A stretch of 64,000 nt of DNA from a virus (IMGVR_UViG_3300028591_000006:1-64000); one strand, 5' to 3'. Positions 6,187 to 50,215 are shown, numbered from the stretch's first letter. Made by a program: numbers and translations. The notes: generated by a model from the sequence alone, not told the origin.

Positions 6187-6274
6187 AGTTATTCTAATTA
6201 CTCCTTTATTTTAGTTTCCGCCTTAAAAGTAAAATAACAGGTTTTCTAATTTCATTTTTCCACCTTTTCGGTTT

Positions 6275-25798: not shown

Positions 25799-26702
25799 GC
25801 AATGCTACCCAGATTGCAGAAACACCATTACGGTATGTATCAGCATTACTGAAAGCCTGTATCATTGCAATAGCAGTCTTATTCATAGATTTCTTCAGAA
25901 CACTTGTAGCATAACTCATTACAAGTCTGCGTACACCTTCCGGATTGGTAGAAACATCATCTTTGATTTTCTCCATACACTCAACATATTTCTCCCAACC
26001 TTCAGTTCTGATAAGAGCACGGCACAGTTCTATAGCATCTTCATTCTCATCAATGTTAGGATTAAGTTTTATAAAATTTCTTCGTTCATCATCATTTTCA
26101 AGATAAAGAATCTGTCCTAAACGTTTAAGAGCATTTCTTGAAGAACCATTACTTTCAGCAGCGACTGTTTTCAATATTTCCTGGTCTATTGCAACACCTT
26201 CTTTATGAGCAACTGTTCTAAGCAAACGATAAGTTGTATCTAAATCTAAAGGTTTGAAACGTACCAATGATAATCTTGAACGTAATGCCTCTTTCAACTT
26301 TTCAGGATTTGTCGTAGCAAAAATAAATACAACCCATTCAGGTGATTTTTCAATAATTTGCAGCAAACAGTCTTGAGAATCATTTGTAAGCCCATGACAT
26401 TCATCAAATATATACACCAACTTGCTATTCTCTAAAGGTGTAAATTTAAGTTCTTCACCAATAGCACGAATATCCTCAATTTTTCTCTCATTAGATGCAT
26501 TAATCATACGAATATTCAATTCATTAGCACCCAAATACCTTGCTACACATTCAGCAGTGGTCGTTTTTCCACAACCTTTTTCAGCAACAAACAGAAATGA
26601 ATTATGCCCAGCTTGAAGTTCAGCTTTTATAGATTTTATGGCATCATCATTTCCAAGAATTTCATCGAAAGTTTTCGGTCTATACTTATTGTATAATTCC
26701 AT
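25764..26702 (-). CDS. clamp-loader AAA+ ATPase subunit (T4 gp44 / RFC small subunit-like)
   Basis: Walker A (VAEKGCGKTTTA), Walker B/DExx (VYIFDECH), and a sensor region. Confidence 0.75.
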   Translation of the reverse strand: MELYNKYRPKTFDEILGNDDAIKSIKAELQAGHNSFLFVAEKGCGKTTTAECVARYLGANELNIRMINASNERKIEDIRAIGEELKFTPLENSKLVYIFDECHGLTNDSQDCLLQIIEKSPEWVVFIFATTNPEKLKEALRSRLSLVRFKPLDLDTTYRLLRTVAHKEGVAIDQEILKTVAAESNGSSRNALKRLGQILYLENDDERRNFIKLNPNIDENEDAIELCRALIRTEGWEKYVECMEKIKDDVSTNPEGVRRLVMSYATSVLKKSMNKTAIAMIQAFSNADTYRNGVSAIWVALLDFQDYLAQLG

Positions 26703-27675
26703 TGTTTTTCTCCTTCATACTTTGTCTATGGCGTTTCATAGACTCACTTATTTTCTTTCTGGTTTCAGGGCTAACAGTTCTTAATTTTCCAATTTCTCGT
26801 AATTTTTGTTTAGTTTCTTCAGAATGATGCTTTCCATAAAAATGATTCTTTTCACCCAAAAGACTTTCACTTATTTTACGTTTACTTTCATCAGAATGAT
26901 GTTTACCCTTTATCCAAGGTATTTTCCCTTTATTTTTCTCACTTAATATCTTTTTTCGTTCTTCCGGAAATTCCCTATTTTCCCAATATTTCAACCTAGA
27001 TATTCTCATTCTTTCTTTTTGTTCTTCAGTACGTTTCTTACCTTTATTTTTTTCAGCAATCTTATTAACGATTTCTTCGGAACGTTTCTTTCCAAGATTT
27101 GAATTTATCAAGGCTTGTTTATGTTCTTCAGATAAGGTATAACCATTCTTTTTTCTAGTTATCCAACCTCTTTTCGATTTTTCTGAACAGTCTTGCTTTA
27201 ATAGACTATTTGAAAGTTTTTCTTTACTTTCATTCTTCATAGGAATACTTTTATTCCAGGTTGGTTTACCTATATGTGAATTAGACATCTTTTTCTTAAC
27301 ATCTGAAGAATTTAATTTTTCAATTATCTTCTTGCGAATTTCTAATTTTTCTTCAGGTGTCAAAAATTCTAGGGAATATCCATGACCTCCTTCAGCAATA
27401 TTATATTCTGCTTTACCAATACTTTTGTATAAAGAAATATATGAAGTTTCAAGAATATCAATTTCTTTTGAAGAATGACATATTGCTAATATTTCCTTAT
27501 CAAAGTTATTAATACCATATTTATTTTCAGCCCGAATTATGTATTTTCCAGACCCCATATATCCATCGGTTAATGGCGTAACAACTCTACGTTTATATTT
27601 TCGCAAACGTCTTTGACCAACATAATTCTTACCATTAATTTTGTTTGTTATAAGATAAATATAATAAGTTTCCAT
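26686..27675 (-). CDS. GIY-YIG homing endonuclease with NUMOD3-type repeats (start trimmed to METYYIYLITN)
   Basis: YYIYLITNKINGKNYVGQ...R...GYMGSGKYI is a GIY-YIG core. The C-terminal half carries repeated basic modules of the form HSDESKRKISESLLGEKNHFYGKHHSEETKQKL. Inserted between the clamp-loader and clamp genes. Confidence 0.8.
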   Translation of the reverse strand: METYYIYLITNKINGKNYVGQRRLRKYKRRVVTPLTDGYMGSGKYIIRAENKYGINNFDKEILAICHSSKEIDILETSYISLYKSIGKAEYNIAEGGHGYSLEFLTPEEKLEIRKKIIEKLNSSDVKKKMSNSHIGKPTWNKSIPMKNESKEKLSNSLLKQDCSEKSKRGWITRKKNGYTLSEEHKQALINSNLGKKRSEEIVNKIAEKNKGKKRTEEQKERMRISRLKYWENREFPEERKKILSEKNKGKIPWIKGKHHSDESKRKISESLLGEKNHFYGKHHSEETKQKLREIGKLRTVSPETRKKISESMKRHRQSMKEKNNGIIQ

Positions 27676-27769
27676 ATATCCTTTTATCCTCATTTATAAA
27701 AGTCTACCCAAACCGGACTAACTTATATTATCAAATAACAAACAAAAGGTAAAGAATATCGTCACCTCT

Positions 27770-28894: not shown

Positions 28895-30910
28895 CTAGAA
28901 CAGACTTGAACCTCTTTGCAGCTCGTATCCATACTGTTCAAGGCGTTTCTTAGCAATATCAATGTACCATTTCTTATTTATCTTAATACTGAACGGAACA
29001 TCTTTAACCGACTTATTATAAATGAAACAATGTTCAGGTGTATCCTGAAACTTACTGATTGTCTTTCCGATATCTTCACACTTTCCAAGATAGGTATCTG
29101 TTTTGTCAGTAGACGCAAAAACACGATATGTCTTATCGGTAAGATATTCTCCATTGTGCCATGCGTATTTATCACCGGTAAGTCTGTAGATACTCTGGAA
29201 TTTAATCATTTCATTACAGTTATTAATTGTATCTTCAACAGGAATGTTCTTGCTGATATAATTAACCATTGCCTCGTTGAGAATAGGAAGGTCATTATCA
29301 AGCGGATTATTCTCCTTTACAAAACTTCCCTTACGCTCAATAACTTTCATGTTTCCATTCTCATCAGGTCTTGAGAAAGCAACATAATTGTTTACATCTT
29401 TCTGTACGATTCCACCCCATTCTTCATGAGCGAATGTAAGTTTGGTTCGTGCACACCATTCATCACAGATATGACGGTAAATCTTTTCTGTCATTTCATC
29501 TTCAGCAAGTTTTACAACGATACCATCAGTATTTGACTGAATCAACTGAAATCTGTCACCAAGACGAAGTTCAAGTTTTTCAAGAAGGTCTGTAATCATA
29601 AGCTGACCATTTACACAGATGTTATTAGCCTGAACAGGGTCATATGCCTCACTGTTCTTATCCTTTGTGATTCCATACTGGCTGTTAAGAATTACCTTAT
29701 ATGGTGCCTGTTCTTTCTTTTTTCCGGCTTTCTTAAGAGCCATACGTGTATCATAAACTTCCTTGAACTTCTCAGGACTGCGACAGTTACGTGTAAGGAA
29801 ATCCCAGCCAATCATACTGCTCGGATAGTAACTGCCGATATCACTATGATACAGTTTACCAAATACGTGAACCGGTTTTGTAGGACAGCCATGCAGACCA
29901 CCCCATCCGAAAGTATGATTTACTCCACATACCAGTGTCTGGAAAGAAGTCTTGCTATCTTTATTTTTCTTAACCTGTTCACCCTTATCAAGAATGTATT
30001 TATTCTCCGGAGTATTTGGAAGTTCACCTTTGTAATCTTCAAGTTTCAGAAATCTTTCAAACCAGTCTCGGATATAAACATATTTTTCAAGTTGAATGCA
30101 CGGAAGGAATGTAACATTGAATTCATCATCGTGCGGTTGTTTCTTGCAGTCTACAATAAGTGCTGTAAGCTGACCCTTAGTTCGTGATACATTTTTGAAC
30201 GGAAGGTCAAATGTTTCTACCAATGCAATCTGAGCATCAAACTCGCTGATACGAAAACGGAATACCTCGATTGTCTGTTCAACATCATGAATACAATAAC
30301 GCATTGTGGAGAAAATCTCTTTCTGAGTTAAAGGTCTGTCAAGGTTGAAATCTACTTCAGTTTCTTCAATGTCATTACCCATAAATCCTTCAAGAAGTTT
30401 AAGGGATTCAGGCGGCATTTTCTTCATCATAACATCATATGAATAAATCTCTATATCATTCAGATTATACTCTTTTGAAAGTTCGTAAGGTTTCTTTCCT
30501 TCCACAATTAATTTATCAGAAATCTCTTTAGGGTCATAACCTAAAAGGATTCCTTTCATAATCGGAACATCATAATGTTTGTTATTGTATCCAGTCCAGA
30601 TGTAAGTCTTATGCAACTCAAAGAACTCACGGAGTGCTGAACGGTTATTTGCTATGATTGTCTTTATCTTTGCAACAGGGTCAATGATTACAACAAGCCA
30701 GTCGTACATAAAAACTTCAAAGTCATAAAACACAATGCCATAAGGATATTTCTCTGCTGTAAAGTCAGCATATCCTGGAATATCTGTGATTGTACGGTTT
30801 ATGTGTACAAGTTCTTCGTAAGTTACATTTCGTTTCTTTACAGGTAGTTTTGCAACTGTTGGTGCAACAACAGTCTTTTCAGGTTCAATATCAAAATCAA
30901 AAAGTGCCAT
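28895..30910 (-). CDS. family-B DNA polymerase with 3'-5' exonuclease (compact, 671 aa)
   Basis: Exo I (FYDFEVF), Exo II (YNNKHYDVP), Exo III (YCIHD). Pol motif A (DIGSYYPS), motif B (KVILNSQYG), motif C (SNTDGI). Confidence 0.8.
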   Translation of the reverse strand: MALFDFDIEPEKTVVAPTVAKLPVKKRNVTYEELVHINRTITDIPGYADFTAEKYPYGIVFYDFEVFMYDWLVVIIDPVAKIKTIIANNRSALREFFELHKTYIWTGYNNKHYDVPIMKGILLGYDPKEISDKLIVEGKKPYELSKEYNLNDIEIYSYDVMMKKMPPESLKLLEGFMGNDIEETEVDFNLDRPLTQKEIFSTMRYCIHDVEQTIEVFRFRISEFDAQIALVETFDLPFKNVSRTKGQLTALIVDCKKQPHDDEFNVTFLPCIQLEKYVYIRDWFERFLKLEDYKGELPNTPENKYILDKGEQVKKNKDSKTSFQTLVCGVNHTFGWGGLHGCPTKPVHVFGKLYHSDIGSYYPSSMIGWDFLTRNCRSPEKFKEVYDTRMALKKAGKKKEQAPYKVILNSQYGITKDKNSEAYDPVQANNICVNGQLMITDLLEKLELRLGDRFQLIQSNTDGIVVKLAEDEMTEKIYRHICDEWCARTKLTFAHEEWGGIVQKDVNNYVAFSRPDENGNMKVIERKGSFVKENNPLDNDLPILNEAMVNYISKNIPVEDTINNCNEMIKFQSIYRLTGDKYAWHNGEYLTDKTYRVFASTDKTDTYLGKCEDIGKTISKFQDTPEHCFIYNKSVKDVPFSIKINKKWYIDIAKKRLEQYGYELQRGSSLF

Positions 30911-31627: not shown

Positions 31628-31876
31628 CTAAATTGATTTCCAATCATAAGAATTCTCAAGCTGCTCCATAAGTTTATTGCGGCTTTCTGTTTTCTCAGCA
31701 ATATCCTTATTAATTTCATCACGCTTTTTCTTAGCTTCTTCAAGTGTCCTGAAACCATATTTCTTTTCCCAGTTATTTTCAATGGTTTCAATCTTACCTT
31801 CAGAACTTGCACTGCTAAGTTCAATTTCTTTCATTTCATTTTTAATCTTTTCGAATTCCGATGGTGTCATTTTCAC
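31628..31876 (-). CDS. small charged protein (82 aa)
   Basis: Minus-strand ORF. Confidence 0.35.
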   Translation of the reverse strand: MKMTPSEFEKIKNEMKEIELSSASSEGKIETIENNWEKKYGFRTLEEAKKKRDEINKDIAEKTESRNKLMEQLENSYDWKSI

Positions 31877-32177
31877 TCCCTTTCAAAAGTTCATCAAGTT
31901 CATTTACCTTGGTATAAATCTGATAAAAATATTTAAGTGTCCGGTAACGCATTACCACATCTCTATTATCAGGATTTACATCACGAAAATCCACTTTATC
32001 CAGGTCATACATTCTGCCATACATCTGCTCGATGACCTGAATATTCTCTTCAATCTGTTCCGGGGAAAGATTAAAGAATTCTGTCATTGTCTTCTCAACA
32101 GTCTTCTTAAACTTTCCAAAATCTTTTATGAACATGTTAAATCTCCATTCGCTATCGGCTTGCCACAGTATGGACAA
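31842..32177 (-). CDS. hypothetical protein (111 aa)
   Basis: Minus-strand ORF. Confidence 0.4.
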   Translation of the reverse strand: MSILWQADSEWRFNMFIKDFGKFKKTVEKTMTEFFNLSPEQIEENIQVIEQMYGRMYDLDKVDFRDVNPDNRDVVMRYRTLKYFYQIYTKVNELDELLKGSENDTIGIRKD

Positions 32178-33148
32178 ATATCCGGTAACTTTGTTTGTAA
32201 TTCCTCCCGTTTCTTCTTTAATGATAGAATCTTTTCGTTTTCCAATTCATAAGATTTAATTTGTTCATCAAGTTCAGATACATCCGAGATATCCATTAAT
32301 TCAATCTGATGTACAAGTTTCTTCTGCTTGGATAAATCTATGATATAGGATTTTGCATGTTCATATTCTTTTATATCATCATCAAGTTCAGATACATCCG
32401 GAATATCAATATTCTCAATCTGCTCAACAAGTTTCTTCTGCTCAGACATATCAATGATTGTTATGTTTTCTCTATCGGAAATTGCAGCTGAAAGTTCAGC
32501 AGACTCGGTTTCTTTCTTCTGAAGAATTTCGTTGTACTTCACAATGCGTTTACAAATATTATCAGCTTCATCAATCCAATCTGTATCCTTTAATCCTTCT
32601 TCGAGTTTCTTAATATCGGCTTCCACAACCTTCTGTTCTGAAGATAACTGTCGTTTATCAGAATCAGCAATAGACATAATCTTATCAATACTATCGAGGT
32701 GAACAATCTCATTAAGATACTTACTTGCTTCACCTGCACTTTTACTGATAAGGTATAAAGGGTCGAGCTGATACTGAAAGTTTACATCTGAAACATTAAG
32801 GAAGTCTATTACTTCTTTTGGTACACCTTTACCAATAGCGTCTAAGTTAGTTTCTTTTTCACCGTTCTTACAGATGTTATATCCGTTTCGTTTTTTATCA
32901 CGGATTCTCTCAACATAACCTTTCTCAGTATACAATTTTACAGAAAGTGGTTCCTTGAAATCTTCATTCCAATTCGAGTTTATCTTTTCTGTACCCTGTG
33001 GCTGATTATCTACTACCCAACGGATAGCACGGATAACAGCTGACTTACCGTTATCAGATTCACCACAGATAACATTTACACCCTTATCAAATTCAAGGAT
33101 TGTATTCTTATGCGACTGGAAATTCTTTATCTCTATTTTCGTAAACAT
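32126..33148 (-). CDS. Rad50/SbcC-like ATPase, N-terminal half (Walker A + coiled coil + C-terminal CxxC zinc hook)
   Basis: MFTKIEIKNFQSHKNTILEFDKGVNVICGESDNGKSAVIRAIRWV is an SbcC/Rad50 N-terminal Walker A. A long coiled coil contains an internal 30-aa duplication. The protein ends ...LPDICPYCGKPIANG. Confidence 0.6.
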   Translation of the reverse strand: MFTKIEIKNFQSHKNTILEFDKGVNVICGESDNGKSAVIRAIRWVVDNQPQGTEKINSNWNEDFKEPLSVKLYTEKGYVERIRDKKRNGYNICKNGEKETNLDAIGKGVPKEVIDFLNVSDVNFQYQLDPLYLISKSAGEASKYLNEIVHLDSIDKIMSIADSDKRQLSSEQKVVEADIKKLEEGLKDTDWIDEADNICKRIVKYNEILQKKETESAELSAAISDRENITIIDMSEQKKLVEQIENIDIPDVSELDDDIKEYEHAKSYIIDLSKQKKLVHQIELMDISDVSELDEQIKSYELENEKILSLKKKREELQTKLPDICPYCGKPIANGDLTCS

Positions 33149-33525
33149 CTTTTCAACTCCATAATATTTCTATTACTGAATGCGATAGGATAATCATGTT
33201 TCTTATCGTACGGAAACTTGGCTGTAATTATCCAGGTTTCATCCCAACCAATTCTTGTATCAGGCTCATCATAATATAATTTACATTTAATAGAATCTAT
33301 AATAATATCCTTATCCTCTTCTACACAATGAGATATAAAGTCATTCCAATCTTTTGGTTCAAAATAAGTTTCCATAGAATCTTTAAGACCACCTCTATGA
33401 AATCTTACCTTGTAAACATCCTGACCTTTTATCCTCTCACATTCATTAAAAGTTTCAGCTTTTACATTATTTGAAACTTCTCTATTAATCATTGCATTAA
33501 ATATGTTATTTTGAAATTTCTTCAT
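33133..33525 (-). CDS. hypothetical protein (130 aa)
   Basis: Minus-strand ORF. Confidence 0.4.
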   Translation of the reverse strand: MKKFQNNIFNAMINREVSNNVKAETFNECERIKGQDVYKVRFHRGGLKDSMETYFEPKDWNDFISHCVEEDKDIIIDSIKCKLYYDEPDTRIGWDETWIITAKFPYDKKHDYPIAFSNRNIMELKRCLRK

Positions 33526-33605
33526 TCATAATACCAGAAGCGGTTAATAATTCTTTCTCAAGTCTTTTGCCTATATCTTCTTCACTCATTCAATATACTC
33601 CTACA

Positions 33606-34097
33606 TTAAATAATTTTCTTAAAAATATACTGACAATGTGGACCAGAGTTTATATAATCAATTACATAAGGTTTACCTTTTGTAATATCACCATAAGTAA
33701 CTTCAGAATCATAAGGAATATAAAATTCAATCTCATGAGTTTTCAGACCACTCCATATATACAATAATAGCTTACATTGTGCTGAATTTTCATATGAAAC
33801 AATCTTATAATCTTTTAATTTACCTTTCCATTTATAATAACAATCCGCACCCATTGAATTAGCATAATGTTCTTCAATTTTCACAAGTGCATATCTTTTA
33901 AGAGTGCGAATAGCATTTCGTAAATGGTGTTTATCAAAATACATACAATTATTCCTTATCACATGCCTTTTCGTCAGGGTCATAGATTGCCATCTTACAA
34001 CCTTTCTTTCCAATATCAACAGTAAATTTATCAATAAGTTTTTCTCTAGGAAATTCTTCGTAAATCGTGTTAATTGCAACAGAATAACCTTCAACAA
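33606..34097 (-). CDS. hypothetical protein (likely shorter; start near MTLTKRHV)
   Basis: Minus-strand ORF. Confidence 0.35.
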   Translation of the reverse strand: MLKVILLQLTRFTKNFLEKNLLINLLLILERKVVRWQSMTLTKRHVIRNNCMYFDKHHLRNAIRTLKRYALVKIEEHYANSMGADCYYKWKGKLKDYKIVSYENSAQCKLLLYIWSGLKTHEIEFYIPYDSEVTYGDITKGKPYVIDYINSGPHCQYIFKKII

Positions 34098-34170
34098 TTA
34101 AAGGTTTCACAAAGTCCACAACATTTTGAAGACTGTTAAATTCGTAAGTACCTGAATTAATCATTGACAT
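33949..34170 (-). CDS. hypothetical protein (73 aa)
   Basis: Minus-strand ORF overlapping the upstream frame. Confidence 0.3.
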   Translation of the reverse strand: MSMINSGTYEFNSLQNVVDFVKPLIVEGYSVAINTIYEEFPREKLIDKFTVDIGKKGCKMAIYDPDEKACDKE

Positions 34171-34468
34171 ATTTATTCTCCTTATTATAAATCTTTCCTT
34201 CTCTTAAAGCGGTCATATATTCATGTCTATCCTTGAAACCATATTTCACAATATCAATTGCTATCATTTCAGCAACAACCCACGAAGAAATCATATCATA
34301 ACCACTTACTACAATATTTGAAACAATTTTATGAATTTCATTAATATCCCTATGAGATTGTTTAAGCAACCATTTAACTTTATTATTTTGTCCACTTGGA
34401 TTTTTGTGGTGTTCAAGGATGTTGGTTCCACGCATACCTTGTTTTCGTTTAATTATACTTACTGCCAT
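34157..34468 (-). CDS. hypothetical protein (103 aa)
   Basis: Minus-strand ORF. Confidence 0.4.
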   Translation of the reverse strand: MAVSIIKRKQGMRGTNILEHHKNPSGQNNKVKWLLKQSHRDINEIHKIVSNIVVSGYDMISSWVVAEMIAIDIVKYGFKDRHEYMTALREGKIYNKENKYVND

Positions 34469-34725
34469 TATTCTTCACCTCTCTGCTTTCTAATTTTCTT
34501 TGAATATTCATGACCTTTCCAAAGTGTTCGCATAATCTTCTCATTGTTAGCTCTTGAGAAACAGGACTTACAGATATAAGCTGCACACTCAGAACCGTCA
34601 GAATACTGTCCATCTTTACGGATAGTTTTTCTCATAAGTCCAATCTGATAACAAAGGTCTGTAAGACGCTTACCATTTTCATCAAATAACTGTTTTCCAC
34701 AAATACAACATTTATCATTAATCAT
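34468..34725 (-). CDS. zinc-finger protein (85 aa)
   Basis: CCICGK...C...CAAYICKSC motifs. Confidence 0.4.
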   Translation of the reverse strand: MINDKCCICGKQLFDENGKRLTDLCYQIGLMRKTIRKDGQYSDGSECAAYICKSCFSRANNEKIMRTLWKGHEYSKKIRKQRGEE

Positions 34726-35315
34726 TTCTCACCTCTGAGTAAATATAAATTATTCTTTACTTCAGGAAGATATACATTCAAAGTAGACTGCGGAATATTA
34801 CCACTCATTACCTTAGTTTCTCCACAGTTATAAGCCATAATAATATCATCTTCTACTCCAAGTTTTTCTTTAAGATAATGAATATGATGAACAGCTACAT
34901 AGGTACTATGTTTCCAATTTGCCGGATTAAATTCAACATTCTCAAATTTCCAATATCTGTCCTTAAATGTTGTCCACAAATATCGGTCATTCATCTGCCA
35001 CAGAAAAAGGTCAACTGTTCCGTTATCATTTACATGTATTGCCATTGGGTCAAACTTTGGATTTTCCATCATAAGAATTGATACATCTAAATCAGAATCA
35101 TCACCAAGTCCATCACATAAATCACAAATATAATTACTGAATTCTTTTGGCATAAACTTATATTTTGGTTCACGTTCATCAAAAGTTGGTTCTTCAAGTG
35201 ATAAGTCTATTGCGATTATTTTTGCTCTCTTACTTCCTAACAAATAACAGGCTATCATTAAAGCAACTAATAATATTCCCATTAAACTTGTCAAAATTAT
35301 TTTACTTCGTTTCAT
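34722..35315 (-). CDS. membrane-anchored protein (197 aa), possible murein-hydrolase-like domain
   Basis: N-terminal signal-anchor ILTSLMGILLVALMIACYLLG. AYNCGE resembles the AYNAG motif of lytic transglycosylases, but the match is weak. Confidence 0.3.
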   Translation of the reverse strand: MKRSKIILTSLMGILLVALMIACYLLGSKRAKIIAIDLSLEEPTFDEREPKYKFMPKEFSNYICDLCDGLGDDSDLDVSILMMENPKFDPMAIHVNDNGTVDLFLWQMNDRYLWTTFKDRYWKFENVEFNPANWKHSTYVAVHHIHYLKEKLGVEDDIIMAYNCGETKVMSGNIPQSTLNVYLPEVKNNLYLLRGEK

Positions 35316-35333
35316 TTTATCTTATTCCTTATT

Positions 35334-35345
35334 ATAATTATAGAA
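35334..35345 (-). promoter_or_regulatory. phage promoter (-10 motif) upstream of 34722..35315
   Basis: TTCTATAATTAT. Confidence 0.4.
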
Positions 35346-35357
35346 TCTTATCAATTT

Positions 35358-35774
35358 CTAATTCTTATAATATTCGTTATGCCATTTTTCAATAATTGCA
35401 TCTTTAATCTTATCGTAATTACCTACAAGTTCTTTCTGAAAATCATACAGAAAATCTTTTGGCATATCTGAAAGATACTTAAACCTATAATTATGTTCAT
35501 TATACAACCAATACATATCATGTGACCAAGAATTTCCTTGACTATCACACAGGTAATCTCTTTCGACAGCCATATACATATTCCAATTCTCAAGTTTGAC
35601 CATAATTTGTAAATTACCTTTATGAATCTTAATGTAAGTATTTGTTTCAGGAATATGATATGTTCCTTCAAACTTAACATTGCGATAGTCATAAGTTAAT
35701 TCAATAGCATCATATAATGTTGAATTGAAAATACAATGTTTCCTAAATTCTTTCCATTTCTCAAATAGATTCAT
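35358..35774 (-). CDS. hypothetical protein (138 aa)
   Basis: Minus-strand ORF. Confidence 0.4.
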   Translation of the reverse strand: MNLFEKWKEFRKHCIFNSTLYDAIELTYDYRNVKFEGTYHIPETNTYIKIHKGNLQIMVKLENWNMYMAVERDYLCDSQGNSWSHDMYWLYNEHNYRFKYLSDMPKDFLYDFQKELVGNYDKIKDAIIEKWHNEYYKN

Positions 35775-36389
35775 TTATTCTGCTCCTTTATTCTTCAACT
35801 GTTCTGTAGCAAGTTCGAAAGCAAGCAAATATAATTCAACTATTCCTGTACTTCTTTTTCCAATACTAGACGCATATTCCCAACAGTCTGAATCAATTTT
35901 ACTGAGTACGTCATATCCTTTTTCAGATAAACCTCTTCTATCTGAAAAATCTTCTAATGCATCACGTATAAAATCGTGAGTATTTTCGTAATCTTCTGGT
36001 AATTCTAATTCATAATCTTTTATATATTCTTCAATTTCCTTATATGCAGAATCTTCGTCATATTCAAATAAATCTCTACTATGACAATTAATTTTACCCA
36101 TGAAATAAGACGGATTATGTACAAAATCACCAAAACATTCATAAGTCATATTTTTATAATTAGTTGCAGTAAGTTCACCTAAATCACCGGTAATGTGTAA
36201 GCAATAAGAATCTTCATCAAAAAGAAACCTTATACGATAACAGCAATTATCTGGTTCTGCAAAATCCAAAATCTTTATTTGTCCTAAGTCGATAAACTTA
36301 GCAACGTGTTTTTCAAAGTATTTTTTCTGTATTTCAAGATTTAACATTATTCTGCTCCTTCTAATTCCCTGACTGTTCAATCCAATCAT
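35775..36389 (-). CDS. hypothetical acidic protein (204 aa)
   Basis: Minus-strand ORF. Confidence 0.4.
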   Translation of the reverse strand: MIGLNSQGIRRSRIMLNLEIQKKYFEKHVAKFIDLGQIKILDFAEPDNCCYRIRFLFDEDSYCLHITGDLGELTATNYKNMTYECFGDFVHNPSYFMGKINCHSRDLFEYDEDSAYKEIEEYIKDYELELPEDYENTHDFIRDALEDFSDRRGLSEKGYDVLSKIDSDCWEYASSIGKRSTGIVELYLLAFELATEQLKNKGAE

Positions 36390-37242
36390 TTATTTTATTC
36401 TGTATACCTTTATCGTGATTGACTGCTTCTTTTCTTAAAGATGAGATATAATCCAGGGTAACATCTTCTACCTTAATACCTTCTACGAAATTCTCAATAG
36501 TCTGGTCCAGAGTTTTCTTTTCGTATCCGTTGTGATTAAACTTTTGTTCAAGTCCTATTGGAATAAACTTTACCTCTTCAGTTTCAGTATCGATAATGTA
36601 TACACCGGGAGTATAATCTTCAAAATCAGCAGCCTGTCGCATAAGACAACCGGAATTAATAACATGACGATGATTTGAACAATATTCAAAGTTCTTATGA
36701 TAATCTCCCGTAAACACCCATTGTGCAGAACTGTATTTCTCAAGTAAAGATTCAGGTGTTTCACATTCAATAAAATCAGGTTTATCTTTACTTGGCATTG
36801 TAAGAACATGCTTAAAAATTAATTTAGCATCACCATAGTCGTCTTCATCAAAATTACAGGCTTTAATATAACTTGTATCTCTAGCCATATTACGAACACA
36901 TTTTGAATTGAGAAGTACACCAATAGCTGACTTTGGAATATTGGAACTACTGTGATTAATAAGGTCGTGATTACCTGCAAAAATATAAACAGGAATGTTT
37001 TCTTTATCAGCATCCTGTGCAAAATCCTGAAGAATATATGTACATTCATTTGTTGCAGTTCTTTCACTGTGGTACAAATCTCCACCAACATCTATTTCAT
37101 CAACCTTATTTTCTTTTGCAATTTCAAGAACTCTATGTACAGACTTCTTTTGAAAATCCATCCATTCTTCAGGTGTTGCTTCAATACAACTTGGTACGGT
37201 ACTTCTTATATGCCAATCAGCCGTTATTAAATGCTTACTCAT
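36361..37242 (-). CDS. sbcD: SbcD/Mre11-family metallophosphoesterase nuclease
   Basis: Phosphoesterase motifs DWHI (motif I), GGDLYH (motif II) and AGNHD (motif III). Confidence 0.75.
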   Translation of the reverse strand: MSKHLITADWHIRSTVPSCIEATPEEWMDFQKKSVHRVLEIAKENKVDEIDVGGDLYHSERTATNECTYILQDFAQDADKENIPVYIFAGNHDLINHSSSNIPKSAIGVLLNSKCVRNMARDTSYIKACNFDEDDYGDAKLIFKHVLTMPSKDKPDFIECETPESLLEKYSSAQWVFTGDYHKNFEYCSNHRHVINSGCLMRQAADFEDYTPGVYIIDTETEEVKFIPIGLEQKFNHNGYEKKTLDQTIENFVEGIKVEDVTLDYISSLRKEAVNHDKGIQNKINDWIEQSGN

Positions 37243-37413
37243 CTATTCGTTCTCCTTTATCACATAAACAAGTTCATATTTATCATTTACATAAGGATAT
37301 TTGGTTTTATGAGAATATTCTTCTATGAATCCCTTCTCAGTTATTGGTATCTCATCTGCTGTTTCAATATCCTGTAAGAAATAATTACATCCTGTCTGAA
37401 TAATTGCTTTCAT

Positions 37414-37821
37414 TTAATTCTCCTTTGGTGGTAATACAGGACACTCTTTCCAAGCGTAAACCTGTTCATCGAAACATTCATAATCATCATCATCTTCCCA
37501 ATGGAAATCTTCTTCACAATCTGTTTCTTCTACCCAATTCAGAATTGCTCCACTCTTATATCCACGACCATTATCCATAGCAACATAATAAGAACCTTCG
37601 CTTTTTGGGAAATCTCCTTTTGACGGATAGTGCCATTCATCAGCCTTTCTTTCTTCTTTACTTTCCCAATGCTTATTCAGATAGTCTATTTCTTCTTTGG
37701 CAAAATTATAGCCAAACTCTGCACCGTCTTTCCAATCTGTAATATGATTTTTATATCCTTGAACACTTGAAGGATATTTTTTCATAATTGCTTTTTCTGC
37801 TTCTTTCTCAAACATTCTCAA
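37414..37821 (-). CDS. MFEKE-family protein, paralog 2
   Basis: MFEKEAEKA, DGAEFGYN, EWHYPSKGDFP and VYAWKECPVLP blocks. Confidence 0.55.
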   Translation of the reverse strand: MRMFEKEAEKAIMKKYPSSVQGYKNHITDWKDGAEFGYNFAKEEIDYLNKHWESKEERKADEWHYPSKGDFPKSEGSYYVAMDNGRGYKSGAILNWVEETDCEEDFHWEDDDDYECFDEQVYAWKECPVLPPKEN

Positions 37822-37999
37822 ACTCCTTTGTTTCTTCTAAAAACTTATCAATTATATCGTAATATTTACTTTCAGTTTCAAAAGAATTATAAGTTGATTG
37901 TTTATTACCCATAATCATAATTTCTCTTGCCTGTTTAATTAATTTTAGTAATCTGTAATATTCTCGATTTAGTTTATCATATCTCATATCCTGTATCAT
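37808..37999 (-). CDS. hypothetical protein (63 aa)
   Basis: Minus-strand ORF. Confidence 0.3.
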   Translation of the reverse strand: MIQDMRYDKLNREYYRLLKLIKQAREIMIMGNKQSTYNSFETESKYYDIIDKFLEETKEFENV

Positions 38000-38172
38000 T
38001 TATTTCATCTCCTTAAAGTATCTTGTAACCTGTCGATAAATGACTTTATTACCCTCACCACCTTGTATACATTTGAACTTACGCTCCAATGGAATTAAAA
38101 ACGCATTTCTTTCGGGGTTCATCATATCAACTTTTACATCTACATCAACAACATAAATCTCTTGTGGTTGTT

Positions 38173-38508
38173 TCATTCACTCTCCTTTAGTTCTGGAAGT
38201 ACAATTTCTTTCCAAGCGATAACTGTACTCATAGGAATAAAACCCCAACCTTTTGACATAAAATGATTTTCAACTTTTTCCGCAACATAGCAATTATTCA
38301 AGTCTGTATAAATTAACATATACTCTTTATCTTTCGGGAAATCCCCATCTTTCACATAATGCCATTCGTTCGCCTTGTTAAATCCGAACTCTGCACCTTT
38401 TTGAAAGGTTTTTGAATGATTATCTATATCATCAACATAGCCATTACCAAGTTCTTTTGTTGCCCATAACTTTGATTCTTTCTCAAACATAGTTACTCCT
38501 CCAAGCAC
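38173..38508 (-). CDS. MFEKE-family protein, paralog 3
   Basis: MFEKESK, KGAEFGFN, EWHYVKDGDFP and IAWKEIVLP blocks. Start uses the GGAGTAACTATG module. Confidence 0.55.
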   Translation of the reverse strand: MLGGVTMFEKESKLWATKELGNGYVDDIDNHSKTFQKGAEFGFNKANEWHYVKDGDFPKDKEYMLIYTDLNNCYVAEKVENHFMSKGWGFIPMSTVIAWKEIVLPELKESE

Positions 38509-38799
38509 TGTTTTACCCTTACATACCCAACATAGATAAAATCACGAGCAGCTATTGCATCTGTTCTCTGCTGTTCTGTAATGGTTTTATCTTTAGCAAT
38601 TGCATCTATTCTGTCCATTATGTCTATCAGTTCAAGTCTGATATTATACATTCCTTCTTGAAACATTCTTTCTGCTCCTTATTATCCTTAAAAGTATCTT
38701 TCATAGCCTGTTTATACATTTCTAACATTTCGGATTTATGCTCATTTGGAACACGATTGTATAAATCTTTTAGAAAATCTAATGTACTATAAAGTTCCA

Positions 38800-38985
38800 T
38801 TACTCACTCTTATTAAATATTTTTATAAAACACTTTTCACAAATATGTTTTGCTATATGGTCAGTTCCAGTTGTATTAAGTTTCTGTAATGCTTGAGGAA
38901 GAACCCAATAAAGATGTTTACTTGTTACGGTAAACTCAACGTTTATATTACTTCCACATAAATCGCAATTTCTCATATTACCCAT
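38800..38985 (-). CDS. zinc-ribbon protein (61 aa)
   Basis: CDLCGS...CEKC motifs. Confidence 0.35.
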   Translation of the reverse strand: MGNMRNCDLCGSNINVEFTVTSKHLYWVLPQALQKLNTTGTDHIAKHICEKCFIKIFNKSE

Positions 38986-39321
38986 TTAATTCTCCTTATT
39001 CTCAGCCCCGTGAATATAAGCCAACTTTACAAGATTATGTATTTTTCTAACAACATCTGAATCTCTGGAAATATATTTAATATGGTTTGAAACTGCTTTA
39101 GAATAAGAATATTTCTCAGCATCATCTTTTACTTTCTGCTCGTTTTCTTTCTTTAACGATTCTTCACAAATAGCATTTTGCAATTTTGTCTGTTCAAATT
39201 CAAATAATTTAGCTTTTGCTCCTGTTATGTAACCTCGAACAAACAAAGGTCTATCAATTAATGGAATTACTTCCCATTCAGGTGTTGCTGTTGCTTCTTT
39301 AATTAATTCATCATCACTCAT
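38986..39321 (-). CDS. hypothetical protein (111 aa)
   Basis: Minus-strand ORF. Confidence 0.4.
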   Translation of the reverse strand: MSDDELIKEATATPEWEVIPLIDRPLFVRGYITGAKAKLFEFEQTKLQNAICEESLKKENEQKVKDDAEKYSYSKAVSNHIKYISRDSDVVRKIHNLVKLAYIHGAENKEN

Positions 39322-39671
39322 TATTTTCTCCCTTCTTGTGTATTTATAAACTTATTCACTCGGCTAGCAAGTATAGATGCACTCTTCCAATTATCATTAT
39401 CTTTTAATTCATCTCTGAGCCATATAATTAATTTTGTAGCTTCACACAAATCCTTATACATCATTGTTGCACCTTCACAACTCTCTAAAAGACTTCGATT
39501 TTCTTCCTGTAAATCTTTTGTAGTCTGAATGGCAACTGCCGTAGCAACTTCTATCATTGGTTCTTCGAAAAGTTCAAATGATTTATCTTCCCAATCATAT
39601 TCCTGCTTTGCATAATCAATCCATTCTTTTACCTGTTTCTCAGCTTTAGCAACAATCTCATGTTCTATCAT
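39321..39671 (-). CDS. hypothetical protein (116 aa)
   Basis: Minus-strand ORF. Confidence 0.4.
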   Translation of the reverse strand: MIEHEIVAKAEKQVKEWIDYAKQEYDWEDKSFELFEEPMIEVATAVAIQTTKDLQEENRSLLESCEGATMMYKDLCEATKLIIWLRDELKDNDNWKSASILASRVNKFINTQEGRK

Positions 39672-39674
39672 TAT

Positions 39675-39896
39675 TTACTCCTTGTTCTCATATTTCTTTC
39701 TAATTTCTTTATTATAAAAATATACCTTTATATCATGAACAATCATTATAGCAGTAAGGATGATAAGTATAGCTGCTAATACAAGATTAATTATTCCATT
39801 AATCTTATGATTAGATTTAAGGTTATAATAACCAACTAAAATATTAAACACAATACAAACTAATTCAAAAATATAAACTCTCATTTCTTCTCCCAA
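39675..39896 (-). CDS. small membrane protein (73 aa, two TM helices)
   Basis: Hydrophobic helices. Confidence 0.4.
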   Translation of the reverse strand: MGEEMRVYIFELVCIVFNILVGYYNLKSNHKINGIINLVLAAILIILTAIMIVHDIKVYFYNKEIRKKYENKE

Positions 39897-40033
39897 CCTT
39901 TATCGGCAATGTAATAAATCAATGTTGCAACACAATACGCAACCATTAATTTTGTAAGAATATCTTCAGGTAAAAGAAATAAAATAACACCCTGAACGGT
40001 AATTACCAAAAGGTCTACAAGAATCTTTTTCAT

Positions 40034-40630
40034 TTATACCACCTCACTCACTTTATTTATCTTCTTGATAACAAATCGTTTATCACTGTTATCCATAAGT
40101 TCTTCAACATGAGTAACTTCAATTATCTGTATATGTAATCTTTCAGAGAATGTATGAACAACTTCTGCAACCTTTTCTCTTAAACCTTTACTGACAAATC
40201 TGAATGGTTCATCGTATACCATAACATTATCAGTATGACTAATATTAAATACTGCAACTCTTAAAGCAAAACAAAGAACATCAACTAATCCGCCACCGTT
40301 CTGTTCCTTAGGGTCTACTTCCTTACCATTCTGAAGAAGTAAGAATTCAACTTCCGTCTTACCACGAGCAGGTACATAATTAAGCTTAAATGTATACTCA
40401 TCCCCAAAACATGTTGCAAGTGCAAGATTAACAATAGTATCAATCTTTACTGAAAGTTGCTTCTGAACTTCTGTTGCTACTTCCTGACAAACAGATAATG
40501 ACTTTAGAACTTCTTCAGTTTCAACCTTAATTTCTTCAAGTCTTTGTTTACGAGATTTTAACAGTTCTTCGTTCGACTGTTTCTTTACCTTAAGAGTATT
40601 TAATTTTTCTTTTATTTCTGTGAATTCCAT
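40034..40630 (-). CDS. Rad50/SbcC-like ATPase, C-terminal half (coiled coil + signature-like + Walker B + H-loop)
   Basis: N-terminal coiled coil, then NGGGLVDVLCFALRVAVF (ABC signature-like), VMVYDEPF (Walker B) and IIEVTH (H-loop). Confidence 0.5.
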   Translation of the reverse strand: MEFTEIKEKLNTLKVKKQSNEELLKSRKQRLEEIKVETEEVLKSLSVCQEVATEVQKQLSVKIDTIVNLALATCFGDEYTFKLNYVPARGKTEVEFLLLQNGKEVDPKEQNGGGLVDVLCFALRVAVFNISHTDNVMVYDEPFRFVSKGLREKVAEVVHTFSERLHIQIIEVTHVEELMDNSDKRFVIKKINKVSEVV

Positions 40631-40634
40631 ACCT

Positions 40635-40661
40635 TAATTATAGAATTCCGGATAAACTCAG
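40635..40661 (-). promoter_or_regulatory. phage promoter upstream of the Rad50 C-half gene (CTGAGTTT-13-TATAAT)
   Basis: Full motif between the SNF2 stop and the 40630 start. Confidence 0.5.
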
Positions 40662-40664
40662 AAA

Positions 40665-42410
40665 TTATTCATATTCTATCTGAACACCTTTCTTATTCTT
40701 CAGCAGTTTTCTCTGCTTTACCTTGGCAATCATAGACTCATTTATATCTACAAACTGAGCGTTTGTATTACCATCCATAACGGCAACAATGTCTTCATAA
40801 TGTTTACTCAGACTCTCAAGCGGACCCTCATCAATCGTATCCTTTACAACAAGATAATAAATAACACATCTGTCAGCAGTCTGTCCGATTCGGCAAATCC
40901 TATCCATTGCCTGCATATGCTGAGCCGCAGTTTGTCCGAACTCGGTAAAGATAACTGTATGACTTGCTGTAAGGGTAATTCCGGTAGACGCTGCCTGAAT
41001 CTGTCCTACAAATATCTTAACTTTATCATCTGTCTGGAAAGCGTCAATCATAGACTGTCTTTTCTCAGAAGGAACAGAACCATTTATACCAACAGCCTGT
41101 TTACCGAATACCTTCATAAGTTCATCGTACATCCGGTTATGATAAGTAAAGATAACAAGTTTATCTTCTACTTCAAGCATATCCTTTATAAACTGGATAG
41201 TCGCTTCAAGTTTAATATCAACCAGAGCTTCTTTCATTTTTGCAAGGTATGTAAACTGATGGATACCTTCTTCCTGGGAAAGCAGCTCTTCTTCCATAAG
41301 GTCATATGTATTACGGCTCTTATCATCAAGGTCAAAATAAATAGGAATTGTCTGTTTCTTAGGCAGCTGAGGAAGTACATCTTCTTTCTTATGACGTATC
41401 ATGATACCCGAGAGTTTCTCACGAAGTTCGGGAATATTACTTGCACCTTTATACTCCCAGCCAAATCCATTGTAATAAGGAGCACAATATCTCTGCTTGA
41501 AATCCCATTCTTTCGGAAACAAATCAGGAGCAAGTAAATGACAGGCATTATAAAACTGTACAACCCTTGTCTCGAATGGAGTTCCAGATAAAAACATTTT
41601 CTTTACTTTAGAGTTTACTGAAATCTGTGTAACACCACGGGTTCTTACAGCCTTGGAAGATTCAATAGCCTGGACTTCATCAGCAATTATGACTTTCGGT
41701 TTAAGTACATCATTGATTATATCTACCCAGCCTTTAATCGGTATAAATGCCTTGCGGTAATAGTATCCTTTCTCCTTGGCTATCTTGATACGTTCCTTCT
41801 CTTTCTTCTGAAGTTCCTTATCATCCACACCAAGAATATCATAATTGATTATTACCACGTCAGCCTGCTTTGCACTATTGAGAATGTATTTATTTTCATA
41901 TGAGCTGCGACCATTGATTACATAAGTCTTTACATCAGGATTCCATTTCTCAAACTCAACCGCCCAGTTCGTTTTAAGGGATGCAGGGCATACTATAAGA
42001 GCCGGATAAAGGTCTGCTTTCTTAGCAAGGTACATTATGGACATAAGGCTCTTACCAGTTCCCTGGTCTGACGCAAGAAGGATATTACCGTTCATATGCA
42101 GCATCTGATATACACTTTCTTTCTGGAAAGGATACATACATTCCGGAAGATTAAGGGCGTTTATATCTTCCTTACGTTTTTCAATTACCTTATCAATTTT
42201 TGCTTTAAGTGAAAGGAATGAATCATCAAAGATTGCATTTTCTATCTTTGCAACCTCAAGGACATTCTGTACAGTACGGTTAAATGCAAAAGCATTCAAC
42301 TTTGGAAGATACTCAGCGTTGAACTTTTCTGCAAGAGAATTCAGTTTGTCCACATCAAGACGGGCAGCGTCTACAATAATTCTACTGCCATCAAATAATA
42401 CACGTGCCAT
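40665..42410 (-). CDS. SNF2/Rad54-family helicase
   Basis: Helicase motif I (ASDQGTGKS), motif II (IIADEVQAI), motif III (LSGTPFE) and motif VI (QAMDRICRIGQ). Confidence 0.8.
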   Translation of the reverse strand: MARVLFDGSRIIVDAARLDVDKLNSLAEKFNAEYLPKLNAFAFNRTVQNVLEVAKIENAIFDDSFLSLKAKIDKVIEKRKEDINALNLPECMYPFQKESVYQMLHMNGNILLASDQGTGKSLMSIMYLAKKADLYPALIVCPASLKTNWAVEFEKWNPDVKTYVINGRSSYENKYILNSAKQADVVIINYDILGVDDKELQKKEKERIKIAKEKGYYYRKAFIPIKGWVDIINDVLKPKVIIADEVQAIESSKAVRTRGVTQISVNSKVKKMFLSGTPFETRVVQFYNACHLLAPDLFPKEWDFKQRYCAPYYNGFGWEYKGASNIPELREKLSGIMIRHKKEDVLPQLPKKQTIPIYFDLDDKSRNTYDLMEEELLSQEEGIHQFTYLAKMKEALVDIKLEATIQFIKDMLEVEDKLVIFTYHNRMYDELMKVFGKQAVGINGSVPSEKRQSMIDAFQTDDKVKIFVGQIQAASTGITLTASHTVIFTEFGQTAAQHMQAMDRICRIGQTADRCVIYYLVVKDTIDEGPLESLSKHYEDIVAVMDGNTNAQFVDINESMIAKVKQRKLLKNKKGVQIEYE

Positions 42411-42542: not shown

Positions 42543-43388
42543 TCAAATATTTAATTTTTTTACTTTGTTTTTCATATTTATAAAGTTATCTTTAGCAGTT
42601 TCCTTTCTGTAACAACCACAAGATTTTGTATAACCATTTATTAAAGCAGATTCTTCAACTATCTTCTCAACTCCACAATCACACTTACATATCCAATATT
42701 CTTTTTTATTCTTATCATGTCTTTCAAGTCTTTTAATTGCGGTTAATCTGTTAAATTTTCTACCTTGAATGAAAACATCTTTGTCCTTACGTTTGGTTTC
42801 AAAACGATTTATTCTTTTATGAGAGATTTGTAATTCTCCTCTATATTCCTGTATTTGATGTTTCAATCCATGTTCTACGATATATTTATTCCTAGCTTCA
42901 AGTCCTTCTTTTTGTGTATTGAAAGTTCCTATATTCACACTTTTATCATTTATTGATAATGTAACCAACCATCTGCCCGATGATTGTAAAAACAAACCTG
43001 TATATCCACTTTTATTATTTCTGTTTTTAGACAAATGTGTATTTTGTGTAAGGTAATCTACCCATCTACAGTTAGAAGGTTCATAATCTCCATTAGGGTC
43101 GATTCTATCTATAGTTAATAAATTCCTTCCATTCCTATCAGGGATATATTTATATCCGTTATTTAGACTCCAATTATAAAAATTATCAAAATCAAACCAA
43201 TCATCGCATACCCTAATACCTTTTTCTCCATACTTTTTATAATTCTGAGAACTTGAATTAAAACACCTTTGTTTCATCGCACTCCATACAACTCTCAATT
43301 TGTTTCTTATGAAAGTTTTTTCATCTTCAATCATTTCACTTTCCGGTTTTCTATTTGCGTAATTCTTTCCTTTACTCATCTTCTTCAC
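42543..43388 (-). CDS. HNH homing endonuclease with an AP2-like DNA-binding domain and a C-terminal CxC zinc module
   Basis: LTIDRIDPNGDYEPSNCRWV is an HNH_3 motif. YTGLFLQSSGRWLVTLSINDKSVNIGTF is AP2-like. WICKCDCG...KSCGC is a zinc module. Sits between the SNF2 and DnaB genes. Confidence 0.6.
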   Translation of the reverse strand: MKKMSKGKNYANRKPESEMIEDEKTFIRNKLRVVWSAMKQRCFNSSSQNYKKYGEKGIRVCDDWFDFDNFYNWSLNNGYKYIPDRNGRNLLTIDRIDPNGDYEPSNCRWVDYLTQNTHLSKNRNNKSGYTGLFLQSSGRWLVTLSINDKSVNIGTFNTQKEGLEARNKYIVEHGLKHQIQEYRGELQISHKRINRFETKRKDKDVFIQGRKFNRLTAIKRLERHDKNKKEYWICKCDCGVEKIVEESALINGYTKSCGCYRKETAKDNFINMKNKVKKLNI

Positions 43389-44793
43389 TCTCCATTATGA
43401 GATTATCAGCCAAAATAGGTTCATCAAACATAAATTGTCCAAGAGCAAGACACTGTGGGAATACACAGCAATCCACACTCTCACCATTACGCATAACAAC
43501 ATTTCGCAAACGCATAACATGGTTCTTTTTCATCTTAGGTGTCTGCTCCATTGATATCATTGAAGTTACATGAGTTACCTTGCGATAATCTTCAGCAATC
43601 GCATTTACATCTACAACAGATGAACTATAACCTGAACGGTTTGTCTGGGTGGCTGTAATTACCGCACAATGAAAATCCATAGCAAATCCACGAAGATACT
43701 GAGTAATGGCATTGAGCTGATTTCTCAATTCCTTATCTCCACCAATCGGTCGTGTGATATCAGCATAGTCAATAATAAGAACATCCGTTACAAAGTTTTC
43801 TTTTGCAGCAAGTTCTTCTACACGGTCACAGATATCAATAACAGATGCCTTTCCAGCCGGGTAAGCAATGATTCTGAGGTTCGCACTATACTGAGTCAAC
43901 GCACGTAACTGACTTTGCAGCTCACTTACATCCCTACCCATATTTTCCTTTACGTTTATATCATAAAGTTCAATCTTGTATTTTCCCTTTTCATCCGGAC
44001 ATTCCACGAACTTACAGCTTTCATAAACACCGGGTTTTATCAGACCTGACTTTGCTCCGAACAGTTCCTTCCACACACGCTGAATCATTTCTTCACGTGT
44101 CATTTCAAGACAGACCATAGTTACATTCAGACGCTGTTTCAACGCCTCCGTTCCGAACTTCTGAAGGAACCATGACTTTCCTTTCTTAGCACCCGCCATA
44201 ATCATAATAAAGTCATTACGATGAATATTGCCTATTACGTCATTCATTTTCCCAGGCATTGTAAACAGAATCTCATCCTGTTGACGCAGAGCATTTTCAA
44301 TAATCTGCACAGCATCTTTATCGAGAAGAGCAACTTCATTCGTTTCGGTTTCTGCAACCTTATTATAGTTCTGCTGAATCTTACGGGCTTTTTTCATGTC
44401 ACGTGTATCAAGACACGCCTGAAGGTTTTCCGTATATTCAGTAAGAGCCTTATAGTCAATGAAATCTCTTCCACGGTCTACAAGGAAATCTTCATTGTTT
44501 ATGTTTATCTTAGATTCGGCAATATTCTTGAGATAATCATAAACAAGGTCTTTCAAAGCCTCATCAGCAATCTCATCACATCTTGCCTTATAGATTGACG
44601 TTACATCTTTCTTTGGTGCAACCTTGAATTTATGATAGTAATCAGTTACCCACGATACGATAACTCTTGAATAGTCACAGTCAAAATAAGTAGGCTTAAC
44701 ATAATCAAGAAGAATCTGGTCGCACTTATCTGACATAATCAGACTTGCAACAAAATCCTTCTCATTGGTGTTTTCAATAACTTCTCGTTTCAT
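43372..44793 (-). CDS. DnaB-family replicative helicase
   Basis: GKMNDVIGNIHRNDFIMIMAGAKKGKSWF (Walker A, H1), VLIIDYADI (Walker B), and a RecA-like C-terminal domain. Confidence 0.75.
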   Translation of the reverse strand: MKREVIENTNEKDFVASLIMSDKCDQILLDYVKPTYFDCDYSRVIVSWVTDYYHKFKVAPKKDVTSIYKARCDEIADEALKDLVYDYLKNIAESKININNEDFLVDRGRDFIDYKALTEYTENLQACLDTRDMKKARKIQQNYNKVAETETNEVALLDKDAVQIIENALRQQDEILFTMPGKMNDVIGNIHRNDFIMIMAGAKKGKSWFLQKFGTEALKQRLNVTMVCLEMTREEMIQRVWKELFGAKSGLIKPGVYESCKFVECPDEKGKYKIELYDINVKENMGRDVSELQSQLRALTQYSANLRIIAYPAGKASVIDICDRVEELAAKENFVTDVLIIDYADITRPIGGDKELRNQLNAITQYLRGFAMDFHCAVITATQTNRSGYSSSVVDVNAIAEDYRKVTHVTSMISMEQTPKMKKNHVMRLRNVVMRNGESVDCCVFPQCLALGQFMFDEPILADNLIMESEEDE

Positions 44794-50158: not shown

Positions 50159-50215
50159 AAATTTTCTCCTTAAATAAAAAACCTCTGATTGAGAATGTCG
50201 AGGAACCACCCTCAC

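Follow-up and report, generated by a model that had tools for sequence, protein, structure and literature searches.

The genes described here lie in a stretch of viral DNA of 64,000 nucleotides (IMGVR_UViG_3300028591_000006:1-64000), referred to as the window, which derives from a 142.8-kb metagenomic contig. All genes of the window are encoded on the minus strand, in the setting of a phage replication and recombination module. Three open reading frames (ORFs) delineated in a first-pass annotation were retained with the same coordinates and strand: the N-terminal half of a Rad50/SbcC protein (N-half; 32126..33148, 340 residues), an SbcD/Mre11-type nuclease (SbcD; 36361..37242, 293 residues) and the C-terminal half (C-half; 40034..40630, 198 residues). 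In the direction of transcription, the C-half is followed by 12 small ORFs, SbcD, seven or eight further small ORFs and the N-half, with 6.9 kb and approximately 20 small ORFs between the halves rather than the 15 or so counted at first. Judged from their sequences, the two outer ORFs complement each other as the halves of one Rad50/SbcC-type ABC ATPase, broken just after a CPxC zinc-hook motif.

The N-half comprises ATPase lobe I, a segmented helical arm of the coiled-coil type and a C-terminal hook motif, as had been annotated. Its Walker A motif, or P-loop, GESDNGKS occupies residues 29–36 (33041..33064), of which G29, E30, D32, N33, G34 and K35 are invariant in 84 sequences, and the Q-loop residue Q127 is likewise invariant in the 65–84 homologues aligned. 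The helical region spans approximately residues 150 to 320 and is followed by the zinc-hook-like motif CPYC at residues 325–328 (32165..32176), 12 residues before the stop codon, with C325, P326 and C328 invariant across the homologues aligned. The protein exceeded the gathering score of Pfam AAA_23 (9e-12) and matched PHROG 16465 (2e-30) as well as profile positions 297–641 of PHROG 77 (SbcC-like). A family profile derived from alignment A2 was matched to residues 5–222 of Protein Data Bank (PDB) entry 5f3w, which correspond to the Rad50 N-lobe (E 3.5e-12), and a Foldseek search with the AlphaFold2 (AF2) model returned the N-terminal chain of Pyrococcus furiosus Rad50 as the best match, the top entries being 3qkr_A and 3aux. 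More than 100 full-length homologues of 301–353 residues were found in public metagenomes, none of them fused.

The distal arm of the N-half contains a tandem duplication at residues ~225–300 (32249..32476), which is real, as first noted, and extends over 38 rather than 30 residues. Its two copies (~225–262 and 263–300) are identical at 24 of 38 residues, against a maximum of 14 in 200 shuffles, and at 80 of 114 bases; the 114-bp duplication was not picked up by Tandem Repeats Finder run on the DNA. Approximately 10 of 120 N-half homologues measure 301–302 residues, and the two that were aligned (P0143 and P0238) each lack about 38 residues at the site of the duplication.

The C-half starts with a helix at residues 3–75, followed by ATPase lobe II. 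The signature-like, Walker B and H-loop motifs reported earlier were all recovered: the signature equivalent GGG at residues 112–114 (40289..40297, within NGGG at 111–114), the Walker B pair D140–E141 in VMVYDEP (40208..40213, with VYDE at 138–141) and the H-loop histidine H174 in VTH at 172–174 (40109..40111). The GGG triplet, D140–E141 and H174 are invariant in alignments A1, A4 and A7. Homology to ABC ATPases, without which the annotation held that a split could not stand, is clear. The protein matched PHROG 15167 'ATPase' (1e-24), a 211-position family of free-standing proteins, and profile positions 874–952 of PHROG 77; the family profile from alignment A1 was matched to residues 175–368 of PDB entry 3aux, which belong to the Rad50 C-lobe (E 3.6e-13). 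The AF2 model, with a predicted local distance difference test (pLDDT) value of 89.7, consists of the single 73-residue helix plus lobe II, and Foldseek placed 1ii8_B and 1f2u_B on top, the latter with a template-modelling score of 0.79 and a root mean square deviation of 2.9 Å.

As for the N-half, more than 100 full-length C-half homologues (194–210 residues) were found in public metagenomes, again without any fusion. When 1.84 billion representative proteins were scanned in full with the C-half profile in HMMER, 5,025 matches were obtained, 3,329 of them at E<=1e-10 and 1,314 at E<=1e-30; the 150 top-ranking ones among the 5,025 span 154–304 residues, with nearly all close to 200, and an N-lobe is present in none. 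Some free-standing C-halves (P0283, P0291, P0295 and P0308) carry low-complexity C-terminal tails of 50–100 residues rich in Arg, Lys and Ser, which may be an added DNA-binding tail. The N-terminally extended C-half P0312 was considered as a fusion with the small protein described below and was rejected, as its extension is a hydrophobic, unrelated sequence.

SbcD, found between the halves as annotated, matched Pfam Metallophos (2.3e-7), PHROG 100 'SbcD-like' (2e-20) and, over motifs I–III, Thermotoga maritima Mre11 (3qg5_C, 9.3e-6). Related loci, 80 from IMG/VR and 22 from genome bins, were fetched and surveyed with hidden Markov models (HMMs) for the parts of the cassette. Of note, SbcD is represented by two consecutive ORFs in three IMG/VR loci (L028 6908-8296, 131+171 residues; L084 4780-5681, 116+122; L087 180-1044, 115+166), which may reflect additional splits, frameshifts or errors of assembly.

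A fourth conserved member of the cassette is a small helix-loop-helix protein, encoded in the window at 31628..31870 (80 residues from the ATG at 31870). In 63 main-clade loci, the ORFs that immediately precede the C-half constitute one family of about 80 residues, and an HMM built from them matched the window ORF 31628..31876 with E 2.7e-21. The family shows a helix-loop-helix pattern with conserved W-x-x-x-Y-G and D-W residues; in the majority of the main-clade loci, no more than a few bases separate its stop codon from the C-half start. All 103 homologues measure 61–91 residues and none is fused to another domain, nor is the protein fused to the N-half, the C-half or SbcD across ~110 loci. 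The HMM matched the ORFs of 77–78 residues immediately upstream of the C-halves of Bacillus phages weakly (E ~1e-3 to 1e-2), and a PHROG scan with the small protein gave no significant family, only coiled-coil noise with a best E of 0.049. We know of no counterpart in T4 or Escherichia coli.

The two halves map to different parts of the same SbcC-like family, PHROG 77. Walker A is present in the N-half only, and Walker B, signature and H-loop in the C-half only. Together with the CxxC motif on the arm and SbcD in the cassette, these comprise the elements of a Rad50/SbcC system, and what sets the phage proteins apart is that the two lobes do not reside in a single polypeptide with an intramolecular antiparallel coiled coil. 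The P. furiosus Rad50 entries matched by the N and C chains contain the head as two separate chains, so a Rad50 head can form from two polypeptides. We therefore regard it as likely that this phage makes its Rad50/SbcC ATPase from two polypeptides, assembled in the manner proposed below. The split at the zinc hook was already suggested in the first-pass annotation, and it is borne out by the complementary matches to the Rad50 lobes, the conserved CPxC break and the strict co-occurrence with SbcD.

That annotation also offered unrelated SMC-like fragments as an alternative, to which decaying remnants of a disrupted sbcC, likewise devoid of joint function, may be added. The 6.9 kb and the ~20 unrelated small genes between the halves, as well as the failure of the C-half alone to reach Pfam thresholds, would be in keeping with such a view. 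However, both proteins are full-length with invariant catalytic residues and have more than 100 homologues each, down to 37–47% identity, which excludes chance; relatives at 24% identity share the break point; and the halves co-occur strictly, with the C-half family numbering in the thousands. On these grounds of homology, conservation and co-occurrence, the alternative was rejected as extremely improbable.

Several observations weigh against a two-chain Rad50. The C-half reaches no Pfam gathering threshold (SMC_N E 0.17), its signature is GGG instead of SGG and its D-loop, DEPFRFVS, is unlike that of canonical Rad50. The AF2 model of the N-half has a pLDDT of 76.7 and a predicted template-modelling score of 0.37, with unreliable arm geometry. 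A third cysteine follows the CxxC in only 31 of 63 distinct N-half tails, which makes the set of zinc ligands uncertain, and the formation of an N/C heterodimer is predicted from homology only. Finally, a complete sbcC elsewhere would speak against the split, as the annotation had pointed out; no second SbcC-like gene was detected in the window or within 10 kb past either end, a search that covered all but ~59 kb of the 142.8-kb source contig.

The cassette is conserved well beyond the window. In 67 loci of the first survey, the N-half, SbcD, the small protein and the C-half follow each other in this order on the same strand, with a gap between the halves of 1.0–5.6 kb (median 1.7 kb). The genome-bin loci with enough flanking sequence contain the same N-before-C cassette, with the small protein or SbcD below threshold in two, and the bins themselves are labelled as very diverse bacteria and archaea. 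Save for these two loci, SbcD and the small protein accompany the halves wherever the region is covered. Every locus without an N-half ends at a contig edge on the expected side, including the apparent exception L009, in which the N-half is cut off at the contig end. No gene fusing N- and C-halves was found among ~110 related loci. The comparison of synteny and fusion in related phages called for in the annotation is hence favourable to the split.

The position of the break is equally constant. The last CxxC precedes the N-half C-terminus by 6–23 residues in 73 of 76 cases, and the 63 distinct tails follow the consensus LPxxCPxCG plus 2–20 residues. The N-halves without CxxC are those at L077 4163-5263, L079 7214-8314 and L028 5191-6108; the first two share the tail GVCPVTGEYCEI, with a wider cysteine spacing, the third ends with PKECLNKNCVFLVE, and all of them look like variant hook motifs. 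We conclude that the split is ancient, with a fixed break point, and has spread over thousands of protein clusters. The architecture, flagged as unusual in the annotation, is indeed so by comparison with textbook Rad50, yet it is common among phages.

In the window and its near relatives, the order is different, with the C-half first, followed by SbcD where present and the N-half, and then by one ORF and the small protein. This scattered form is derived from the compact operon of N-half, SbcD, small protein and C-half. The gap between C- and N-halves within the clade is 0.5 kb in L015, 1.2 kb in L004 and 6.9 kb in the window, and because it varies to this extent among near relatives, the separation of 7 kb reflects scattering by small accessory genes rather than a feature of the enzyme. 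An endonuclease gene of the NUMOD3 type lies between the halves in L004, an AP2 protein is likewise encoded within the cassette of Bacillus phage vB_BboS-125, as are GIY-YIG-like ORFs in five loci; no endonuclease type is consistently associated with the split cassette.

Given the many mobile elements in such phages, and the HNH and LAGLIDADG-like endonuclease genes and weak Hint match in a lysin of the window, rejoining of the halves into one chain was also contemplated, be it through a split intein, trans-splicing of RNA or the kind of translational bypass known from T4 gene 60. Intein halves would require about 100 and 35 residues, for which there is no room, because the break is flanked by only the 6–23 residues after CxxC on one side and the few residues between the initial Met and the start of the C-half profile on the other. 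No intein halves were found to flank the break, and the first residues of the C-half already align with its family profile and with the Rad50 coil. Moreover, some clades carry the N-half gene ahead of the C-half gene and others the reverse, and as much as ~107 kb separates the two in phage Tunturi_5, which excludes bypass and cis-splicing. Each cassette gene also has its own start codon, preceded by GGAG-type ribosome-binding sites in the N-half, SbcD and small-protein genes; the C-half is the one without a clear site. Rejoining was thus deemed highly implausible.

The AF2 models suggest how two separate chains may be arranged. The 73-residue C-half helix is close in length to the N-half helices 151–188 and 190–227, which add up to 77 residues. 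Beyond residue 227, the N-half is modelled as short helices, followed by a final helix at 291–320 and the CPYC knuckle, so that a descending helix of 73 residues faces an ascending arm of ~170 in the window proteins. Across loci, the N-half varies between 296 and 471 residues, with correlation coefficients of 0.12 with C-half length and 0.22 with small-protein length. Since the partners do not change in step with N-half length, the distal arm probably consists of one chain, the N-half. In addition, the 38-residue duplication or deletion and the lack of length correlation make a residue-for-residue pairing of the distal arm very unlikely.

In the proposed assembly, the C-half helix would pair antiparallel with N-half helices 151–227, which would restore the coiled-coil base together with one complete nucleotide-binding domain. 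A pair of these N/C heterodimers would sandwich ATP and bind an SbcD dimer, and zinc held between two CPxC motifs would join them at the far end. The arm beyond the C-half helix would be formed by the N chain alone, where the small protein of ~80 residues may bind. The complex would act like T4 gp46/gp47, as an ATP-driven end-processing nuclease feeding recombination-dependent replication, a role that fits the neighbouring genes for DnaB, SNF2 helicase, DNA polymerase, clamp loader and UvsX. We infer the physical assembly and its stoichiometry, zinc binding, arm geometry and the role of the small protein.

The small protein may also be given a larger part, namely as the third chain of Rad50, either supplying the missing descending segment of the coiled coil or acting as a cap for a one-helix hook. 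It is present in every testable locus, with its stop codon near the C-half start in most main-clade loci. The shortest N-halves (296–302 residues) have an arm of ~145 residues, roughly the sum of the small protein (80) and the C-half helix (~60–73), and ~115 positions of PHROG 77 separate the hook from the equivalent of the C-half start. Against this, the protein has no significant similarity to any Rad50/SbcC region, other than the one match at coiled-coil level mentioned above; it is never fused to a partner in its 103 homologues or the ~110 loci; its length does not follow that of the N-half; and its conserved W, Y and DW residues point to a specific fold and not to a generic coil. We thus consider a three-chain Rad50 doubtful. 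A related and similarly tentative version, in which a single-chain hook arm and a 73-residue return stub are completed or capped by the small protein as an obligate third subunit, would amount to a previously undescribed kind of SMC-like machine and, if true, mean that Mre11-Rad50 can function without a closed antiparallel coiled coil formed within one chain.

The wide variation of N-half length without compensating change in the C-half, and the large distance between the halves in some genomes, could also be reconciled with halves that act separately, for instance with the N-half as a non-catalytic, zinc-linked tether or scaffold and the C-half paired with a host or other ABC lobe. Yet neither half has a complete ATP site with which to bind and hydrolyse ATP alone, which makes independent function unlikely; the invariant Walker A argues against a non-catalytic N-half, and both halves share the same phyletic pattern. 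This option is accordingly rated as quite improbable, and a single ATPase formed from two chains is preferred.

Isolate phages with the same split were also identified. Within the isolate database, both halves matched the same four Bacillus phages plus the Tunturiibacter phage Tunturi_5, and a weak match to phage Magritte was obtained without an N-half. Bacillus phages phBC6A51 and vB_BboS-125 have the same break point at 24% identity. In Bacillus phage 0305phi8-36 (L003), gp8 (2471-4780) is a fusion of SbcD with the N-half, with CxxC at position 749 of 769, and gp5 (5797-6507), encoded three genes further downstream, past gp7 and gp6, corresponds to a C-half of 236 residues. The former had been described as an Mre11/Rad50 fusion in which one P-loop NTPase segment 'was not observed' (Yoshida et al. 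2011; PMC3175470); the Rad50 segment held to be missing is gp5. In Tunturi_5, a jumbo phage of 309 kb, the C-half gp14 (L088 5983-6648) and the N-half gp181 (L090 3992-5449) are encoded ~107 kb apart; gp181 shares the break point, ends with LCGKCGDPISKSAA and is followed by a helical protein of 97 residues, with an SbcD gene nearby. A search of the isolate phage collection with the window DNA 32000–41000 at near-identity gave no match.

In Microbacterium phage Magritte, the C-half is encoded by gene 2 (L089 284-934) at the left genome end, and a small-protein homologue, gene 245 (L091 720-980), follows a nuclease gene near the right end, so that the cassette seems to extend across the genome ends. 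Genes 4 and 247 were considered as N-half candidates and discarded, since they look like clamp-loader and sliding-clamp proteins, and no N-half was located among them.

Compared with known systems, the cassette resembles T4 gp46/gp47 and E. coli SbcC/SbcD in having a helical arm with CxxC between the Walker A lobe and the Walker B/signature lobe, a calcineurin-type nuclease partner encoded in the same module, and a location among replication and recombination genes. The phage also has a T4-type capsid and portal. The cassette differs from both in that the ATPase consists of two gene products, the first ending 6–23 residues after CxxC, and in the inequality of the arm strands, with a descending helix of ~73 residues against an ascending arm of 145–320. 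The P. furiosus Rad50 catalytic-domain constructs (PDB 1F2T/1F2U, 1II8 and 3QKR), whose chains match the two window proteins best in structure, likewise form a working head from separate N- and C-lobe chains; however, these are laboratory truncations devoid of hook and arm, whereas the phage split is natural and its N chain retains both. The proteins of 0305phi8-36 belong to the same family, except that SbcD is fused to the N-half there. In T4-related phages, other essential genes are split (Aeh1 nrdA, gene 43 and topoisomerase genes; PMC2988022, PMC3045599). They are similar in that the enzyme is made as two reassembling polypeptides, with free-standing endonuclease genes between the pieces in some relatives. 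In contrast to the ancient and widespread Rad50 split with its fixed break point, they are of recent origin and limited to a few phages.

No description of a split Rad50 or SbcC turned up in the literature searched, which did not cover subscription journals; articles dealing with jumbo phages, gut phages and SPN3US refer to SbcCD but report no split ATPase. In databases, the halves are held as separate families labelled 'exonuclease', 'ATPase' or 'chromosome segregation protein'. Overall, the split ATPase has an ordinary function, an unexpected architecture and a very wide distribution. Correction of the vague labels and addition of the unannotated ~80-residue family to the Mre11-Rad50 module would improve annotation. 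How the coiled coil and zinc hook of Rad50 signal to the head and the nuclease is still debated, and experiments use engineered truncations. The phage protein is a natural, widespread and evidently functional Rad50, in which the chain is broken exactly at the hook, the arm strands are very unequal and the N-chain length is free to vary (296–471 residues). Its reconstitution from small, likely easily expressed proteins could test which arm features are needed for ATP-dependent control of the nuclease.

In the wider module, the genes follow each other in transcription order from a DnaB-type helicase (44793..43372), through an HNH endonuclease, to an SNF2 helicase (42410..40665) directly before the C-half. 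Past the N-half and two small ORFs come a DNA polymerase (30910..28895) and then a homing endonuclease, a clamp loader and UvsX. T4-type capsid and portal genes lie at the right end of the window, partly inside it and partly just outside. Free-standing homing-endonuclease-like genes in or near the module are present at 42543..43388, 26686..27693 and 49121..50215 (all minus strand), one of them an HNH-type gene and the other two matching PHROG 314.

Directly downstream of the C-half, predicted membrane proteins of 50 and 73 residues are encoded at 39675..40033 (minus strand), the larger of which is kept at ~60% identity in relatives L008, L009 and L010; small transmembrane proteins also adjoin T4 gene 47 and the SbcC gene of SPN3US, according to the SPN3US paper. 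Between the N-half and the small helix-loop-helix protein, an ORF of ~98 residues (31842..32138, minus strand) overlaps the N-half stop codon. It gave no significant match in the PHROG scan, and L004 and L005 have an ORF of 93 residues in the same place. Last, a lysin-like protein of 443 residues at 2975..4306 (minus strand) combines a CHAP/amidase match with a weak match to a Hint domain (Hom_end_hint), which could be an intein or the remnant of one.

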